Source: a virus
Virus record (IMG/VR): IMGVR_UViG_3300045988_042432
Reading direction: 5' to 3' (one strand)
DNA length: 64,000 nucleotides
Part shown: positions 42,091-62,388 of the stretch, in pieces
How positions within the stretch are numbered: the first letter of the stretch is position 1
Layout: every line of letters starts with the position of its first letter
The notes under the pieces: generated by a model
The model's input: the letters and a program-made list of their open reading frames with translations, nothing else
What the model was told of the DNA's origin: nothing
The model's database searches: none
Translations under genes and position numbers: made by a program

Positions 42091-42609
42091 GGGCCTAGAT
42101 TTGGTTTTGACAGGCGATTACAAGTTAGTAAGACGTGTAGAGTTCGTACCAACTCTTTAATAATGATACAGCAATTTAAGTGGAAACACTGAAGTAAGAA
42201 TGGCAGCCTAAGCTGCTGGCTTATCTATTAATTTAGCTCTAAGTCGGGTTAATTGGAGAGACCTAGAAACAGAAGAGGTGTGGGAAGAAGCGTATAGAGC
42301 AGCCCACTTAACTTGAAAGCCAAAGGTTAGTAAAGCTGAAATCTCCACTACCTATCTATGGGTTACAAATAGAAACGTTCTCCAACGTAAATGGAGTGGT
42401 GGAGCGACCGTTCGGTCAAGCCCAGTTTGGTAGTTTGTGAACAACTAAGTCGTAGCCCTACGAGGGAGACGTAATTGGTGAATTAACACTCGGCTTCTTA
42501 GTAAAACTACCTACATGCTGAACTCAACAGCTGATGTAATAAAATAGAGACACACGTAATCTTATTAATGAGGGTTGTTTGGACGGCGGTTCGACTCCGC
42601 CTAGGTCCA
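42091..42609 (+). ncRNA. ssrA: tmRNA (ssrA-like)
   Basis: The 5' end GGGCCUAGAUUUGGUUUUGACAGGCGAUU resembles the canonical tmRNA 5' end. The 3' end has GGCGG-UUCGACU-CCGCC-UAGGUCC-A. The acceptor GGGCCUA/UAGGUCC carries G3:U70. A possible tag frame is GGA AAC ACT GAA GTA AGA ATG GCA GCC TAA (42182-42211, GNTEVRMAA). Confidence 0.7.
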
Positions 42610-42637
42610 CTATTATTAACGTTTAAATATCAATTTT

Positions 42638-44485: not shown

Positions 44486-44865
44486 ATCCACTATTGACGA
44501 ATAGTGGTAGCAAAACTTGGTCTGAAGAACCAGTAGACATATTCCGGAGTATGTCTATGACTTAAAGGCTATATCAAAGAGTTGAAACCTGTATCTATTC
44601 GAACAGTAGGAGTTCACCTGATTAAGCATCAGAAAACAGTAGTGCAAATCTACTATAGATATTGTGTAAGAGAGAATCTACACGGTCTGTATTATATAAT
44701 CAGCATGCAGATAGGTCACCAAGCAAACCTCTTTCCTGCCTGGTCAAGTGTGCATTACGGTCTGTAAGTGGCGAGCGGGTTAACGTATGTCCGATTGCCG
44801 TAATGCCGCTTGTTTATTGTTTAGAATAAAGAAAGACTCTCATAACAATAAATTTAAACAAAGAG
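44486..44865 (+). ncRNA. ORF-poor hairpin-rich segment (candidate structured RNA)
   Basis: Hairpins include CCACTATT/AATAGTGG, TTGGT-CTGAAGA-ACCAG (a mimic of the tRNA-Phe anticodon arm) and TAGACATA/TATGTCTA. GC content is higher than in the flanks. Confidence 0.3.
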
Positions 44866-46723: not shown

Positions 46724-46797
46724 AGAGATATAGTTCAGTGGTAGAACAGCTAAAGTCAATCTTTAGAAGAACATCAGTTCGAATCTGGTTATCTCTA
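46724..46797 (+). tRNA. atypical tRNA, anticodon CAA, anticodon arm 2 nt too long, short variable region
   Basis: Acceptor AGAGATA/TATCTCT, D arm GTTC/GAAC, T arm ATCAG-TTCGAAT-CTGGT. The anticodon arm is CTAAA-GTCAATC-TTTAG with an extra G.A layer. Confidence 0.6.
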
Positions 46798-46900
46798 CAC
46801 CATTTTATTAATATGATTCTTTCAACATATGCAGTGTCATTTCTATCTCGACTCATAGTCATTATTACGAGTTAAAGTATCTGCAATTGTTGAATAACTA

Positions 46901-47047: not shown

Positions 47048-47131
47048 GGGCACGTAACCGGTAATTGGTAGCCGCGTAGACTGTAAATCTACTCCTTAAT
47101 TGGACTGGAGGTTCGAGTCCTCCCGGGCCCA
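47048..47131 (+). tRNA. tRNA-Tyr (GTA), long variable arm
   Basis: Anticodon arm GTAGA-CTGTAAA-TCTAC, T arm GGAGG-TTCGAGT-CCTCC, 3-bp D stem. Confidence 0.8.
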
Positions 47132-47184
47132 CTCACACTGCGATAATTAAATACAATATCTGTTGAGGTCAAACTCGACAAACC

Positions 47185-48866: not shown

Positions 48867-48938
48867 GCCCCATTACTTCAGTGGTAGAAGAGCAAATTCT
48901 AAACTTGTATGGCGTTGGTTCGAGTCCAACATGGGGCA
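48867..48938 (+). tRNA. suppressor tRNA, anticodon CTA (reads TAG)
   Basis: Clean cloverleaf: GCCCCAT-TA-CTTC-AGTGGTA-GAAG-A-GCAAA-TTCTAAA-CTTGT-ATGGC-GTTGG-TTCGAGT-CCAAC-ATGGGGC-A. Confidence 0.8.
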
Positions 48939-48940
48939 CT

Positions 48941-49746: not shown

Positions 49747-49818
49747 GATTCCGGAGCATGTATGGATATGCTATAGACTTTTAATCTATAGAACAGGGTT
49801 CAAGTCCCTGCGGAATCA
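49747..49818 (+). tRNA. tRNA-Lys (TTT)
   Basis: Acceptor GATTCCG/CGGAATC, anticodon arm ATAGA-CTTTTAA-TCTAT. Confidence 0.85.
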
Positions 49819-49859
49819 CATATGTACTAAGATTGTACATGATGTCAAAGAACGAGTTT

Positions 49860-49889: not shown

Positions 49890-50142
49890 TATTTAGATTA
49901 CTTATTTATTGACTAAAACTGATGTATTATGAGACTATTTAAGTTAATTAAGAAAGCAGTTCGTTGGTATTTCAAAGTGTCAGCTGATAGCTACACGTGG
50001 TATCCAACAGGAGTAGTTCCTTACCATAGGGATTAACTCCGATGCAATCGGGATAGGTCAATTAAACATTATGGCGAGTTTATTAACAAGCGTTGACACC
50101 TTTTAACTTGCGGTTTGACTTAATTCTTAGTATCTTTGTTTT

Positions 50143-50499
50143 ATGGAAAGACAAAGAGAAATAAGAATATGTTCTAAACACGGAGAAACAGAGTTTGCTC
50201 TTGAGAAATCTGGACGCTGGCGTTGCCTAAAATGTCAAGTAGAAGCAACTCAAAAGAGACGTAACAAAGTTAAAGAGATGGCTGTAGAGTACAAAGGTGG
50301 TAAATGTTCTGTTTGTGGATATGACAGATGTGCGGATGCTTTAGAGTTTCATCATTTAGACCCTTCCAAAAAGGATTTTGGAATATCTTCTAAAGGATAT
50401 ACCAGGTCTTGGGATAAAGTAAAAGAGGAGCTTGATAAATGTATCTTGGTATGCTCTAACTGTCATAGAGAAATACATTCAGGACTTATAAAGACATAA
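50143..50499 (+). CDS. HNH homing-type endonuclease
   Basis: 118-aa ORF with CSVCGYDRCADALEFHHLDPSKKDF...LVCSNCHREIH. TAtcTTTG lies 4 nt upstream. Confidence 0.8.
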   Translation: MERQREIRICSKHGETEFALEKSGRWRCLKCQVEATQKRRNKVKEMAVEYKGGKCSVCGYDRCADALEFHHLDPSKKDFGISSKGYTRSWDKVKEELDKCILVCSNCHREIHSGLIKT

Positions 50500-50506
50500 A
50501 ATCAAT

Positions 50507-50593
50507 GTGCAGTTGGCCGAGTGGTCGAAGGCAATAGACTGTTAATCTATCGTGACGAAAGTCCCACCGCAAGTTCGAATCTTGCACTGCACG
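50507..50593 (+). tRNA. long-variable-arm (type II, Ser-like body) tRNA with GTT (Asn) anticodon
   Basis: GTGCAGT-TG-GCC-GAGTGGTCGAA-GGC-A-ATAGA-CTGTTAA-TCTAT-[18-nt variable arm]-GCAAG-TTCGAAT-CTTGC-ACTGCAC-G. Confidence 0.7.
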
Positions 50594-50718
50594 CAAACAC
50601 ATTAGATTATTAACATTAAATTATAAGATTATGCATAGTTTTGGTGCTTACATTGTGGGAGCTATAGTGCTAGTAGTATTGTATTACATCTTTAAAGATT
50701 CCACAATCTAAAATTGAT

Positions 50719-56821: not shown

Positions 56822-56909
56822 GGAGAGTTGGGTGAGTGGCTTAAACCAGTCCCCTGCTAAGGGACCGAACCTCAAAAGGGTTCCGCTGGTTCGAATCCAG
56901 CACTCTCCG
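56822..56909 (+). tRNA. tRNA-Ser (GCT)
   Basis: Acceptor GGAGAGT/ACTCTCC, anticodon arm GTCCC-CTGCTAA-GGGAC, long variable arm, G73. Confidence 0.85.
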
Positions 56910-56961
56910 CGCTGGCTAATAAGAGTTTGCGAAAATCATTATTAACCTAATTATTAGAATT

Positions 56962-59045: not shown

Positions 59046-59128
59046 GCCGACTTCGCATAGTGGTTGATTGCACGTGACTTGTAATCACGAGAGGAAACTC
59101 CACGTCAGTTCGAATCTGACAGTCGGCT
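59046..59128 (+). tRNA. long-variable-arm (type II) tRNA with TGT (Thr) anticodon
   Basis: GCCGACT-TC-GCA-TAGTGGTTGAT-TGC-A-CGTGA-CTTGTAA-TCACG-[AGAGGAAACTCCAC]-GTCAG-TTCGAAT-CTGAC-AGTCGGC-T. Confidence 0.7.
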
Positions 59129-61320: not shown

Positions 61321-62388
61321 ATGATAAATATAGTTTTAGGTAGTTTCTTCGGCGATTGCGGTAAGGGACAGACAGTTCACAACTTATGTAACAAGTACAT
61401 AGGTAAGCGAGAGTCTGTGTTAGTAGTCAGGTTTAGTGGTGGACATCAAGTAGGACATACTGTAAAGCATGGAGACATGATGCACACCTTTAGTAACTTT
61501 GGCAGCGGAACCTTACTTGGAGTGCCGACGTACTGGTCCGAATACTGTACTGTAGACCCAATTACCTCTATGTTGGAGGGTGCAGACTTAGCTAAAATGG
61601 GAGTTCATCCCATTGTTCAGTATCACCCTCACTGCCAAGTTGTAATTCCCTTCGATGTCTATTCCCAAGTTAATAACGAAGAGAACTTACGACATGGTAC
61701 TGTAGGTACAGGGTTTAAAGCTTGTTTGGACCGAGTTAAGGCAGGATACAGCTTAACAGTTGTAGATTGTATGAATCCTTACATACTGCGTGAGAAACTA
61801 AATGCCATAGTGGATAACTATTACAACATGTCTAGTAAATATCCTTCGATAGACCTAGACAACTGGTGTAGGTTAGCACATGCTTATTTCTTACATACAG
61901 GTACGGTTAATGAAGATTGCTTGTTGAATTATGATAACCTAGTGTTTGAAGGTTCACAGGGAATATTGCTTGACCAAAGATTCGGCATAATGCCTTATTG
62001 TACTCCGTCTAATACAACTTCACAAAACGCTTACGAGCTGTTGCGGAAAGCAGGTATACGTAAAGAAATCCAAACTTGTTATGTAACTCGTCCTTATATA
62101 ACAAGGCATGGTAACGGCCCGTTTCCTTCTGGAATGTCTGTTAGGGATGTCGATGACCCTAATAATAAGTTCAACGATTTCCAGAAGACGCTTAGGGCTA
62201 TTGATTTCGACAAAGACCTATTCGCACACAGTGTACGCATTAACCGTTCATTTAAGGTTCCTTATAGGAATGAACGAACGGAGAAATTGTACGTATCACA
62301 TTGGGATGAAGCATCTGACGCAGAGCGAGAAATGCTAGCAAATTTATGGATGTCGATACAGCCCATGATATTCGATAAGTTAGTTTAG
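61321..62388 (+). CDS. short adenylosuccinate-synthetase (PurA)-family enzyme, PurZ-like
   Basis: 355-aa ORF with FFGDCGKG, VVRFSGGHQVGHTV, FEGSQGILLDQRFGIMPYCTPSNTT and YVTRPYITRHGNGPFP, which align to PurA landmarks. The GTP-specificity (S/T)KLD box and the C-terminal roughly 80 aa of PurA are missing. Confidence 0.7.
   Translation: MINIVLGSFFGDCGKGQTVHNLCNKYIGKRESVLVVRFSGGHQVGHTVKHGDMMHTFSNFGSGTLLGVPTYWSEYCTVDPITSMLEGADLAKMGVHPIVQYHPHCQVVIPFDVYSQVNNEENLRHGTVGTGFKACLDRVKAGYSLTVVDCMNPYILREKLNAIVDNYYNMSSKYPSIDLDNWCRLAHAYFLHTGTVNEDCLLNYDNLVFEGSQGILLDQRFGIMPYCTPSNTTSQNAYELLRKAGIRKEIQTCYVTRPYITRHGNGPFPSGMSVRDVDDPNNKFNDFQKTLRAIDFDKDLFAHSVRINRSFKVPYRNERTEKLYVSHWDEASDAEREMLANLWMSIQPMIFDKLV

Follow-up and report, generated by a model that had tools for sequence, protein, structure and literature searches.

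We describe a phage tRNA gene, here called AsnL, that joins a GUU anticodon to the long variable arm usual in serine, leucine and tyrosine tRNAs. AsnL is a real phage tRNA, and it lies in a 64,000-nucleotide stretch of viral DNA, the whole of which we refer to as the window. We consider AsnL to be a functional Asn-decoding tRNA with a class-II-like body, brought into this phage lineage in an HNH cassette and perhaps serving nuclease escape, a reading to which we assign a probability of about 0.6.

The AsnL gene and its fold

ARAGORN reports a tRNA-Asn(gtt) spanning 50507-50594, whose anticodon it places at position 35 of the gene, that is, at 50541-50543. The Rfam tRNA model RF00005 matches 50507-50593 over model positions 1-71 of 71 with 61.2 bits (gathering score 29; E 3e-11). 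The layout of AsnL was parsed by hand and by script, and together with the two programs it confirms the fold claimed in the first-pass annotation, namely a 3-bp D stem, an 18-nt variable arm, G73 and a GUU anticodon. The features of the gene are as follows:

50507..50593, + strand, tRNA with a long variable arm and anticodon GUU (AsnL), from ARAGORN, the Rfam tRNA match, the segment map and family covariation
50541..50543, + strand, anticodon GTT in the loop CTGTTAA (50539-50545), from ARAGORN and the parse; the loop is invariant in 16/16 aligned members of the family
50551..50568, + strand, 18-nt variable region CGTGACGAAAGTCCCACC, read as a hairpin GAC (50554-50556)-GAAA-GTC (50561-50563) and a 3' tail CCACC

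The 7-bp acceptor (GTGCAGT/ACTGCAC) is followed by U8 and G9, the D stem (GCC/GGC, 3 bp) closes an 11-nt D loop (GAGTGGTCGAA) and is followed by A26, and the anticodon stem is ATAGA/TCTAT. The variable region pairs as a 3-bp hairpin with a 5-nt tail or, alternatively, as 5 bp with a CC bulge; the T arm is GCAAG-TTCGAAT-CTTGC, and the discriminator G73 stands at 50593. AsnL therefore has the acceptor, D, anticodon and T arms and the T loop of a tRNA, with a score above the Rfam cut-off, in an architecture other than that of class I, in which a 4-5-nt variable loop accompanies a 4-bp D stem. CCA is not encoded, and it is also absent from other tRNAs of the window's array. ARAGORN calls no other tRNA-Asn across the 64-kb window, in agreement with the earlier remark that a canonical one was missing there. 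Minimum-free-energy folding of single tRNAs gave z = -1.7, the cloverleaf not being the minimum for several of them, and a scan for sigma-70 promoters and terminators around AsnL returned fewer promoter matches than shuffled sequences did and nothing usable.

A widespread family of long-arm phage tRNAs

A pattern made of the D arm and CTGTTAA matched 19 IMG/VR contigs, which with one further contig (L036) brings the AsnL family to at least 20 contigs. Members are also present in cultured phages, namely phiKZ, the E. coli phages 4MG and Av-05, Serratia phage CHI14 and P. fluorescens phage Y1-MI. Among 16 distinct members, 99.7% of stem cells are paired and 16 of the 20 pairs have changed on both sides; 0 of 500 shuffles did as well, and slid registers came nowhere near. 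All 16 aligned members have the loop CUGUUAA and G73 without variation (L036 also has G73), and throughout the family the 7-bp acceptor stem is perfect and the T loop canonical, on a standard 7/5 acceptor branch. The variable regions are 13-19 nt long and consist of a stem of 3-5 bp whose sequence differs between members, a loop of 4 nt (GAAA in 8/16) and a 3-5-nt tail that ends in C. These comparisons show AsnL to be a member of a widespread, conserved and covarying phage tRNA family and not a one-off mutant tRNA-Ser.

When the same kind of scan was run over 185,579 species-representative genomes, only eight matches were obtained. Five have no tRNA call at the match position and one (L031) is an odd ARAGORN call; the remaining two are undoubted tRNA genes, of 87 and 89 nt, in phage-like tRNA arrays on MAG contigs. 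The contig-pattern scans show that AsnL is not a normal cellular tRNA and that its family is confined to phages. The arrays seen of the window, 4MG, Av-05, CHI14 and Y1-MI have no Asn tRNA other than the long-arm gene, and all of these phages have separate, genuine tRNA-Ser genes as well. Some huge-phage contigs (L010, L013, L014, L018, L019 and L034) carry an ordinary and a long-arm tRNA(GUU) together, and the two could be non-equivalent in such phages.

A megablast of the AsnL region against GenBank phages gave no match. The only protein-level relative that we located is the gut phage csAssE-Sib, in whose homologous region no tRNA genes are annotated; the host of the window's phage is probably a gut bacterium. 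The literature that we searched yielded no description of a long-arm phage tRNA-Asn, tRNA-Thr or tRNA-Lys. Two apparent leads, a phage DNA-modification paper with the words 'class II tRNA' and a Schlafen paper with 'type II tRNA', turned out to have them in a reference title only.

As to the ancestry of the scaffold, the first-pass annotation had stressed that the anticodon loop of AsnL is a single base away from that of the window's tRNA-Ser(GCU). A derivation of one from the other is not supported, the two genes being only 58% identical with unrelated anticodon stems. The loop is also one base from that of tRNA-Tyr (CTGTAAA), and bacterial tRNA-Tyr shares the architecture. Mean pairwise identity of the family is 58.7% to tRNA-Tyr and 54.9% to tRNA-Ser, either of which may be the source of the scaffold; of the E. 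coli Tyr, Ser and Asn sequences used as references, that of tRNA-Tyr was verified. The arm of E. coli tRNA-Tyr is built in the same way, from a 3-bp stem, a short loop and a 3-nt tail. The anticodon arm of this tRNA is that of several family members except for A36U, and its T arm is that of the 4MG and Av-05 genes; it differs in having A73 and GUA, whereas the phage family has GUU and G73, the latter a TyrRS antideterminant.

Replacement at the tRNA-Asn locus

The HNH gene that the first-pass annotation had seen ending just upstream of AsnL is indeed there, with its stop codon 7 nt before the tRNA by coordinates (50499 to 50507). The locus comprises the following features:

50143..50499, + strand, HNH homing-endonuclease-like ORF of 118 aa (PHROG 2255, E 2e-33; Pfam HNH 19.6 bits, below cut-off)
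50073..50080, + strand, 8-nt stump GGCGAGTT, which matches the 5' acceptor strand and U8 of the sister phages' ordinary tRNA-Asn (GGCAAGTT / GGTGAGTT)
50080..50615, + strand, replacement cassette of the HNH gene and AsnL, with 9-bp direct repeats TTATTAACA at 50080-50088 and 50607-50615

The sister phages L062 and L065 have the tRNA-array order of the window and flanks that are 94-99.6% identical to it, and in exactly the AsnL slot they carry a canonical tRNA-Asn of 73 or 75 nt with G1-C72 and G73; the HNH ORF is missing from them in the alignment. The window and L006 have, in order, the 8-nt stump of an ordinary tRNA-Asn, the HNH gene and the long-arm tRNA. The difference is a 434-nt indel with the HNH ORF inside near-identical flanks, a tRNA stump and 9-bp repeats, as expected of a homing cassette; since the repeat TTATTAACA is found six times in the AT-rich window, its own significance is modest. 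Phage tRNA arrays typically contain homing endonucleases. The alignments show the replacement of a canonical tRNA-Asn by the AsnL cassette at the same locus. In addition, tRNA bodies are swapped between sister phages inside near-identical flanks, with 60-63% identity between the tRNA-Lys versions and 63-77% between the tRNA-Asn versions, which is what an arms race would produce.

Identity elements and use of asparagine codons

Identity elements were judged against Table 1 of PMC9976931. The experimentally defined bacterial Asn set, G34, U35, U36 and A37 with G73 (PMC9976931), is present in full in AsnL and invariant in the family. Serine determinants or Ser-like features of AsnL are G73, C72, C11-G24, G30-C40, G10-C25, G13...A22, GG and a G20b-like residue, among which G73 and C72 are not Ser-exclusive, as they also occur in the canonical tRNA-Asn of the sister phages; G30-C40 is likewise found in the L062 copy. 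The anticodon is GUU and not the NGA or GCU of serine, and G2-C71 and R4-Y69 are absent from AsnL, which has U2-A71 and C4-G69 instead. Within the family G2-C71 is found in 9/16 members and C2-G71, a SerRS antideterminant (PMC9976931), in two, and G1-C72 is not conserved. The size of the variable arm is the major Ser determinant (PMC9976931). Both tRNA-Ser of the window, with anticodons GCU and UGA, have G1-C72, G2-C71 and A3-U70 and variable stems of 6 and 5 bp, respectively, with 1-nt flanks, against the 3-bp hairpin and 5-nt tail of AsnL. The label 'Ser-type' given in the first-pass annotation is thus only partly apt: it suits the D arm, with its C11-G24, and less so the variable arm, which is long but of another form, and the acceptor stem.

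The first acceptor pair is U1-A72 in both Pseudomonas phage members (phiKZ and Y1-MI) and G1-C72 in the enterobacterial members and the window. U1-A72 is the GatCAB identity pair for tRNA-Asn, and Akochy et al. reportedly found in 2004 that P. aeruginosa has no AsnRS and uses the AspRS/GatCAB pathway. The phiKZ and Y1-MI genes share acceptor and T stems and therefore represent one evolutionary event. Because SerRS ignores the anticodon and AsnL has a Ser-like D arm and G73, some serylation is possible. AsnRS belongs to class IIb and comes to its tRNA from the variable-loop side, where the AsnL hairpin might hinder it. Judging from the identity elements, AsnL quite likely still carries asparagine.

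The codons AAT and AAC account for 5.9% of codons in 37 long ORFs of the window. In a PurA-like protein, AAY codons specify the Asn conserved in the motifs SNTTS and GNGPF, which were used for this check instead of the catalytic Asn of PurA (GGHNAGHT), a residue that is Gln in the phage protein. A stop-to-stop ORF comparison, which is uninformative on AAY, revealed no clear indication that TAG or TGA is recoded in the window.

Companion long-arm tRNAs

The window has exactly two long-arm tRNAs, Asn(GUU) and Thr(UGU), the second of which is as follows:

59046..59128, + strand, long-arm tRNA-Thr(UGU) with a 3-bp D stem, a 14-nt variable region with a GAG-GAAA-CTC hairpin, G1-C72, C2-G71 and U73

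This Thr type occurs in 35 IMG/VR contigs and is 83-87 nt long in the 32 that have called tRNAs. Phage arrays with the AsnL family also hold long-arm Thr, Lys, Met, Ile, Val, Cys, Gly, His and Gln tRNAs (about ten specificities). The long arm is thereby found also on Ile, Val, Cys, Gly, His and Gln tRNAs, which are not known as targets of the defence system PARIS. The discriminator of the long-arm siblings always follows the cognate rule of their own anticodon and not the G73 of serine: U73 with G1-C72 and C2-G71 in Thr (4/4), A73 in Lys (4/4), A73 in Met, Ile and Val, U73 in Cys and Gly, C73 in His, and G73 with U1-A72 in Gln.

Discussion

The first-pass annotation had offered two readings of this gene, insertion of serine at AAY codons and an asparagine tRNA in an unusual scaffold. 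The former is disfavoured by the ordinary tRNA-Asn in the same slot of sister phages, the missing G2-C71, the discriminators of the siblings and the AAY codons at conserved Asn positions. Asn identity in an unusual scaffold is the best reading, and would fit the locus, identity-element, sibling and codon evidence alike. In the mechanism that we propose, AsnL would decode AAY as asparagine and would be charged through G34-U35-U36-A37 and G73, either by the host AsnRS or, in hosts without AsnRS, by a non-discriminating AspRS with GatCAB. The body of tRNA-Asn would have been exchanged for a class-II-like scaffold whose D stem has 3 bp, whose D loop has 11 nt and whose variable arm is a short hairpin. 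The gene would have entered this phage lineage together with the HNH endonuclease gene, in a cassette that took the place of the ordinary tRNA-Asn resident there. The altered body would no longer be recognised or cut by host tRNA-targeting defence nucleases, which may know Asn, Thr and Lys tRNAs by their shape, D loop or anticodon stem and for which PARIS AriB serves as the model, and the Asn-rich phage proteome could still be translated once the host tRNA-Asn had been destroyed.

AriB cuts tRNA-Lys, tRNA-Thr and tRNA-Asn with the anticodons UUU, UGU and GUU, respectively, between positions 40 and 41, is modelled as reading U16-U17 of the D loop and needs features of the tRNA body beyond the cut site (PMC12409363). 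Phage T5 escapes it with variant Lys, Thr and Asn tRNAs, and overexpressed viral tRNAs have been suggested to inhibit AriB by competition (PMC12409363). The link to PARIS is an analogy drawn from E. coli. The two long-arm tRNAs of the window are phage-encoded, have the AriB-target anticodons Asn(GUU) and Thr(UGU) and bodies unlike those of class I tRNAs, and both keep the sequence U36-A-A-U-C, so that any escape would have to stem from the tRNA body. By this analogy, escape from tRNA nucleases may be the role of the AsnL scaffold, with chances that we put slightly short of even.

Were AsnL a missense tRNA, the host SerRS would charge it by way of the class-II body and serine would enter proteins at AAY, whether through recoding, programmed or statistical, or to sabotage the proteins of the host. 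The Ser-like D arm with C11-G24, together with G73, C72 and G30-C40, speaks for this, as do the independence of serine identity from the anticodon and the mistranslation caused by tRNA-Ser anticodon mutants (PMC9976931), and an ordinary tRNA-Asn alongside in some huge phages would suit a distinct role. We nevertheless regard it as highly improbable: AsnL replaces this phage's only tRNA-Asn at the same locus; it has neither G2-C71 nor R4-Y69, and G1-C72 and G2-C71 are not family-conserved; its 3-bp hairpin and long tail differ from the arms of 5-6 bp in the tRNA-Ser genes of this phage, and the size of the arm is the major Ser determinant; two family members bear the SerRS antideterminant C2-G71; AAY makes up 5.9% of codons and stands at conserved Asn positions; the long-arm siblings obey their own discriminator rules; and the Pseudomonas phage members of the AsnL family have U1-A72. 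The coexistence of ordinary and long-arm genes in some phages would also suit a decoy or competitive inhibitor, charged or not, that occupies a defence nuclease or toxin, or another tRNA-like role. The competition suggested by the PARIS authors and the retained U36-A-A-U-C cleavage-site sequence point the same way. However, the 7-bp acceptor, G73, anticodon loop and T loop are kept in all members, as expected of a tRNA that is aminoacylated and decoded, and AsnL is the phage's sole Asn tRNA, in place of a canonical one; a decoy therefore seems unlikely to us.

It is likewise doubtful that AsnL is a selfish or neutral passenger, a divergent allele that spread through the linked HNH homing endonuclease, is immune to its cutting and has an arm of no benefit to the phage. 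The HNH gene and the tRNA do form one insertion, with 9-bp repeats at its borders and the stump of the displaced gene, and homing endonucleases are common company in phage tRNA arrays. Against this, phiKZ has no annotated or predicted HNH gene beside its member, the upstream gap in L002 is 224 nt and too short for the 357-nt HNH ORF, the family is old, diverse and fully covarying with invariant identity elements, and the arm design recurs on at least ten other specificities. A pseudogene or software artefact, such as a decaying duplicate of tRNA-Ser(GCU) or tRNA-Tyr(GUA), could be imagined from an anticodon one substitution away from both GCU and GUA and from the lack of an encoded CCA. The chance of this is close to nil: with 61.2 bits to the Rfam tRNA, all four stems intact, compensatory changes among 16 distinct homologues whose loop does not vary, and other array tRNAs also without CCA, the Rfam score and the family covariation refute it as far as sequence analysis goes.

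Our preferred reading, an asparagine tRNA in an exchanged body, may extend beyond AsnL. In the textbook view, a long variable arm belongs only to the tRNAs for Leu, Ser, bacterial Tyr and Sec, where it counts as a major identity signal. We tentatively suggest that phages keep a parallel, class-II-like set of hairpin-armed tRNAs (Asn, Thr, Lys, Met, Ile, Val, Cys, Gly, His and Gln) that may be cognate-charged by host synthetases and invisible to shape-reading tRNases. If true, such a set would be a natural exception to the Leu/Ser/Tyr/Sec rule, and a counter-defence at the level of the tRNA fold, beyond T5-type point mutations near the cut site; cognate charging would mean that AsnRS, ThrRS, LysRS and others tolerate a variable-arm hairpin. 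If these tRNAs are serylated instead, phages would deliberately miscode Asn codons. Since the gene is present in phages of E. coli and Pseudomonas that are in culture, either charging outcome is open to direct test. The AsnL scaffold might also be usable as an orthogonal or nuclease-proof tRNA chassis.

Among known systems, the T5 variant tRNAs resemble AsnL and its companions as phage replacements for nuclease-destroyed tRNAs, with anticodons Asn GUU, Thr UGU and Lys, in tRNA arrays interspersed with homing endonucleases. They are ordinary class I tRNAs of 73-76 nt with point changes at or near the cut site (39, 41) and in the D loop (16), whereas AsnL, a candidate for resistance only, retains U36-A-A-U-C in its anticodon stem and is class-II-like, with a hairpin arm, over its whole body. 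The nematode nev-tRNAs are reported to keep leucine identity and to be leucylated in vitro, so that anticodon and identity disagree, whereas for the phage tRNAs the anticodon is matched by both the discriminator and the acceptor determinants (G73 for Asn, C2-G71 for Thr, A73 for Lys, U73 for Cys and Gly, C73 for His). These nematode-specific V-arm tRNAs too are class II tRNAs with class I amino-acid anticodons (Gly, Ile; PMC3333845), but they are cellular and eukaryotic and the long-arm family is viral.

Mistranslating tRNA-Ser variants keep the full Ser acceptor stem and a Ser-size arm, whereas AsnL lacks G2-C71 and R4-Y69, has a 3-bp hairpin arm and substitutes for tRNA-Asn. The tRNA-Ser(CAG) of Candida is one such anticodon variant that mistranslates. 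Yeast tRNA-Ser with Pro anticodons (PMC9976931) is similar to AsnL in its Ser-like D arm, long variable region, G73 and non-Ser anticodon. Allo-tRNAs and 8/4 or 9/3 tRNAs (PMC5389517) are also non-canonical, come from metagenomes and some phages and show a mismatch of anticodon and scaffold, but their 12-bp branch is divided as 8/4 or 9/3, and that of the AsnL family as the standard 7/5. A change of arm has its own precedents. Tyrosine tRNAs are class II in bacteria and class I elsewhere. In bacterial tRNA-Tyr, as in the type I and type II tRNA-Leu of Streptomyces coelicolor (PMC6614811), the arm has been gained or lost with the amino-acid identity unchanged.

Results

A long-arm tRNA-Asn in the window and its relatives

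The first-pass annotation described 50507-50593 as a tRNA with a long variable arm and a GUU anticodon, lying just downstream of an HNH gene in a window where no canonical tRNA-Asn was seen. This description proved correct, as ARAGORN, the Rfam tRNA model (end-to-end match, 61.2 bits; gathering score 29) and direct reading agree. ARAGORN called 23 tRNA genes, spanning 41450-62482, and no further Asn tRNA in the whole window.

Principal features of the window
42091-42612 (+): phage-encoded tmRNA, 522 nt; Rfam 85.8 bits, no ARAGORN call
44488-44595 (+): RAGATH-34 RNA; Rfam 120.9 bits
50143-50499 (+): HNH endonuclease ORF; PHROG 2255, E 2e-33; stop 7 nt before the tRNA
50507-50594 (+): tRNA-Asn(gtt), as called by ARAGORN; anticodon GTT at 50541-50543
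59046-59128 (+): long-arm tRNA-Thr(UGU), 83 nt; 3-bp D stem, G1-C72, C2-G71, U73
61321-62388 (+): divergent adenylosuccinate-synthase-like protein, 355 aa

On direct reading, the Asn gene opens with a 7-bp acceptor stem and U8 G9. Its D arm pairs GCC with GGC (3 bp) around an 11-nt loop (GAGTGGTCGAA), and the anticodon stem ATAGA/TCTAT closes the loop CTGTTAA. The variable region, 18 nt long (CGTGACGAAAGTCCCACC), contains the hairpin GAC-GAAA-GTC; the T arm is standard, the discriminator is G73 and CCA is not encoded.

The gene belongs to a phage family, here termed AsnL. The D arm plus CTGTTAA pattern was found in 8 IMG/VR contigs and a looser pattern in 19, and ARAGORN called a tRNA(gtt) of 87-91 nt in each pattern contig. 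The AsnL consensus matched 86 GenBank phage records by blastn, and the long tRNA-Asn gene was verified in five cultured phages: Pseudomonas phage phiKZ, E. coli phages 4MG and Av-05, the Serratia T4-like phage CHI14 and P. fluorescens phage Y1-MI. Members are already deposited in GenBank as 'tRNA-Asn', the cultured-phage genes carrying this plain label or no annotation; a full-text literature search found no paper noting a long variable arm on phage Asn, Thr or Lys tRNAs. In an alignment of 16 distinct sequences, 99.7% of stem positions were paired, 16 of 20 pairs had changed on both sides, and the covariation score was reached by none of 500 shuffles. The loop CUGUUAA and G73 were invariant; in the variable region (13-19 nt in all members), a stem of 3-5 bp whose sequence differs between members carries a 4-nt loop (GAAA in 8/16) and is followed by a 3-5-nt tail.

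Among 185,579 prokaryotic species (one genome each), only 8 contigs matched the pattern: five had no ARAGORN tRNA call at the match position, two matches, on MAG contigs, fell within phage-like arrays of tRNA genes, and one had an odd ARAGORN call (L031). The family appears essentially confined to phages. The uncalled matches, exact for D arm and CTGTTAA, lie in bacterial MAGs (L029 1904-1933, L030 5795-6021, L028, L032 and L033), several of them a short distance upstream of a genuine tRNA-Ser; they may represent incomplete copies of tRNA-Ser, for instance att-site remnants.

Replacement of an ordinary tRNA-Asn

A scan of IMG/VR for the long-arm tRNA-Thr(UGU) identified sister phages, among them L062 and L065, whose arrays follow the order of the window (Ile, Pro, Cys, Lys, Asn, Trp, Ser...). 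Their Asn slot holds an ordinary tRNA-Asn of 73 or 75 nt, and the spacers flanking it align with those of the window at 94-99.6% identity. In the window and in a related contig (L006), the ordinary tRNA-Asn is cut down to its first 8 nt (GGCGAGTT, 50073-50080), followed by the HNH gene and then the long-arm tRNA, a unit bounded by 9-bp repeats (TTATTAACA). Judged from these alignments, the canonical tRNA-Asn is overwritten by an HNH and tRNA cassette, with no other Asn tRNA kept in the array. This replacement without a second Asn tRNA is the strongest single argument that long-arm and ordinary tRNA-Asn are functionally interchangeable.

Inside near-identical flanks, the tRNA-Asn alleles of the sister phages are 63-77% identical and the tRNA-Lys(UUU) alleles only 60-63% (window 49747-49819 (+) versus L065 9077-9151 and L062), which indicates that tRNA bodies are exchanged much faster than the surrounding sequence. 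The tRNA-Trp alleles are 89% identical.

Amino acid identity

The experimentally defined bacterial Asn determinants, G34, U35, U36, A37 and G73, which can be transplanted to another tRNA (PMC9976931), are all present and invariant in AsnL. The Ser determinants are G73, C72, G2-C71, R4-Y69, C11-G24, G30-C40 and a large variable region whose size matters (PMC9976931). The window gene has U2-A71 and C4-G69, G2-C71 occurs in 9/16 members (G1-C72 in 12/16), and two members carry C2-G71, a SerRS antideterminant. Both tRNA-Ser(GCU) and tRNA-Ser(UGA) of the window have G1-C72, G2-C71 and A3-U70, and their variable stems are regular (6 and 5 bp, respectively) with single flanking nucleotides.

These phage arrays also contain long-arm tRNAs for nine other anticodon identities, whose discriminators were read by a script locating the acceptor stem.

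Discriminators of sibling long-arm tRNAs
Thr: U73; G1-C72 and C2-G71 in 4/4
Lys, Met, Ile, Val: A73
Cys, Gly: U73
His: C73
Gln: G73, U1-A72

These agree with the bacterial identity table (PMC9976931). If the arm conferred serine acceptance, G73 would be expected in all siblings, whereas the discriminators vary. Furthermore, across 37 long ORFs 5.9% of codons are AAT or AAC, and in the PurA-like protein these codons specify the conserved Asn of both the SNTTS and the GNGPF motif, so that wholesale Ser insertion would be costly. We consider Ser charging very improbable; AsnL is probably charged with Asn (probability about 0.75, from sequence features), the remainder falling to mixed or non-translational roles.

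U1-A72, the pair that GatCAB needs on tRNA-Asn, is found in both Pseudomonas phage AsnL genes, which have stems in common and count as one event; the corresponding pair in the enterobacterial phages is G1-C72. P. aeruginosa reportedly lacks AsnRS (Akochy et al. 2004).

The siblings with Lys, Ile, Val, Cys, Gly, Met, His and Gln anticodons (82-90 nt) lie at L036 3506-7136, L041 376-459, L067 6363-8832, L027 1693-1780, L025 1200-1284 and L023 2992-3078. A single contig, L036, has long tRNAs for Asn, Lys, Thr, Ile and Val, and the 90-nt 'His' call of L067 looks doubtful. In phage 4MG (L022 2741-2824), an 84-nt GenBank tRNA-Lys(UUU) without an ARAGORN call seems to have a D loop of ~20 nt rather than a long variable arm.

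Origin of the scaffold

The first-pass annotation placed the anticodon loop one base from that of tRNA-Ser(GCU), which holds for the loop but not for the whole gene (58% identity, unrelated anticodon stems); the loop is equally one base from that of tRNA-Tyr (GUA). E. coli tRNA-Tyr, whose sequence was verified, shares the AsnL arm design, with a 3-bp stem, a short loop and a tail of 3 nt; it has the anticodon arm of several members except for A36U, and a T arm identical to that of 4MG and Av-05. In most members the D arm is closer to tRNA-Ser. Mean identities (AsnL-Tyr 58.7%, AsnL-Ser 54.9%, AsnL-AsnL 71%) do not separate the two origins; 'class-II-like scaffold' is the safe wording, rather than 'Ser scaffold'.

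Other features of the array

The tmRNA and RAGATH-34 RNA lie just upstream of the tRNA array. In the adenylosuccinate-synthase-like protein, GDCGKG replaces GDEGKG and GGHQVGHT replaces GGHNAGHT, and its scores are far under the NCBIfam cut-offs (PurA, 95 versus 402 bits; PurZ, 19 versus 300 bits). The tRNA called as Leu(caa) at 46724-46798 (+) has a class-I size (75 nt), an unusual anticodon loop G-U-CAA-U-C (G32, U37) and A73; it is also conserved in the sister contigs L005 and L006, and may be a type I tRNA-Leu or a molecule of another kind. A further tRNA, at 48867-48939 (+), is an amber suppressor (anticodon CUA; ARAGORN label 'Pyl'); stop-to-stop ORF lengths within the 64-kb window gave no clear sign of TAG recoding. 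ARAGORN also called an antisense tRNA-Arg(tcg) at 56849-56925 (-), overlapping tRNA-Ser(GCU) at 56822-56910 (+) and recurring in sister contigs, which is probably a mirror artefact. At the gathering threshold, Rfam reported neither this tRNA-Ser(GCU) nor an oddly shaped tRNA-Tyr at 47048-47132 (+).

Discussion

Phage tRNA evolution is driven by tRNA-cutting defence systems, among them PARIS, whose nuclease AriB targets E. coli tRNA-Lys(UUU), Thr(UGU) and Asn(GUU), cuts between positions 40 and 41, is modelled as reading U16-U17 of the D loop, and is neutralised by the T5 variant Lys, Thr and Asn tRNAs together (PMC12409363). T5 tRNA-Lys with the cut-site sequence restored is still not cut (PMC12409363); therefore, AriB must also read the tRNA body. 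The two long-arm tRNAs of the window are exactly Asn(GUU) and Thr(UGU), and long-arm Lys occurs in other arrays. The tRNA-Thr(UGU), a type found in 35 IMG/VR contigs and sometimes beside an ordinary tRNA-Thr, has a 14-nt variable region with a GAG-GAAA-CTC hairpin and retains U36-A-A-U-C-A in its anticodon stem, identical to the sequence at which AriB cuts tRNA-Lys and tRNA-Thr of E. coli. Both window tRNAs keep U36-A-A-U-C, so that protection, if there is any, must be due to the changed D arm and the hairpin, which emerges three nucleotides from the cut position.

We tentatively propose, at somewhat less than even odds, that the altered body allows long-arm tRNAs to evade shape- or body-reading tRNA nucleases or toxins; the rapid swapping of tRNA alleles between sister phages fits an arms race. 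The mechanism is put in this general form because the long arm also occurs on tRNAs not known as PARIS targets, which counts against a PARIS-specific account. Alternatively, the long-arm tRNA may serve as a decoy, or may be a selfish passenger linked to the HNH gene; against the passenger, no HNH gene is annotated or predicted beside the AsnL member of phiKZ, and in contig L002 the gap preceding the member, at 224 nt, is too short to accommodate one.

If evasion is its role, AsnL would rank among phage counter-defence tRNAs, a question open to direct test in E. coli and Pseudomonas phages. Its nearest precedents are the point-mutant tRNAs of T5, which share its proposed purpose but use different means, and the nematode nev-tRNAs, which resemble it in architecture but in which identity is reportedly set by the scaffold and not by the anticodon.
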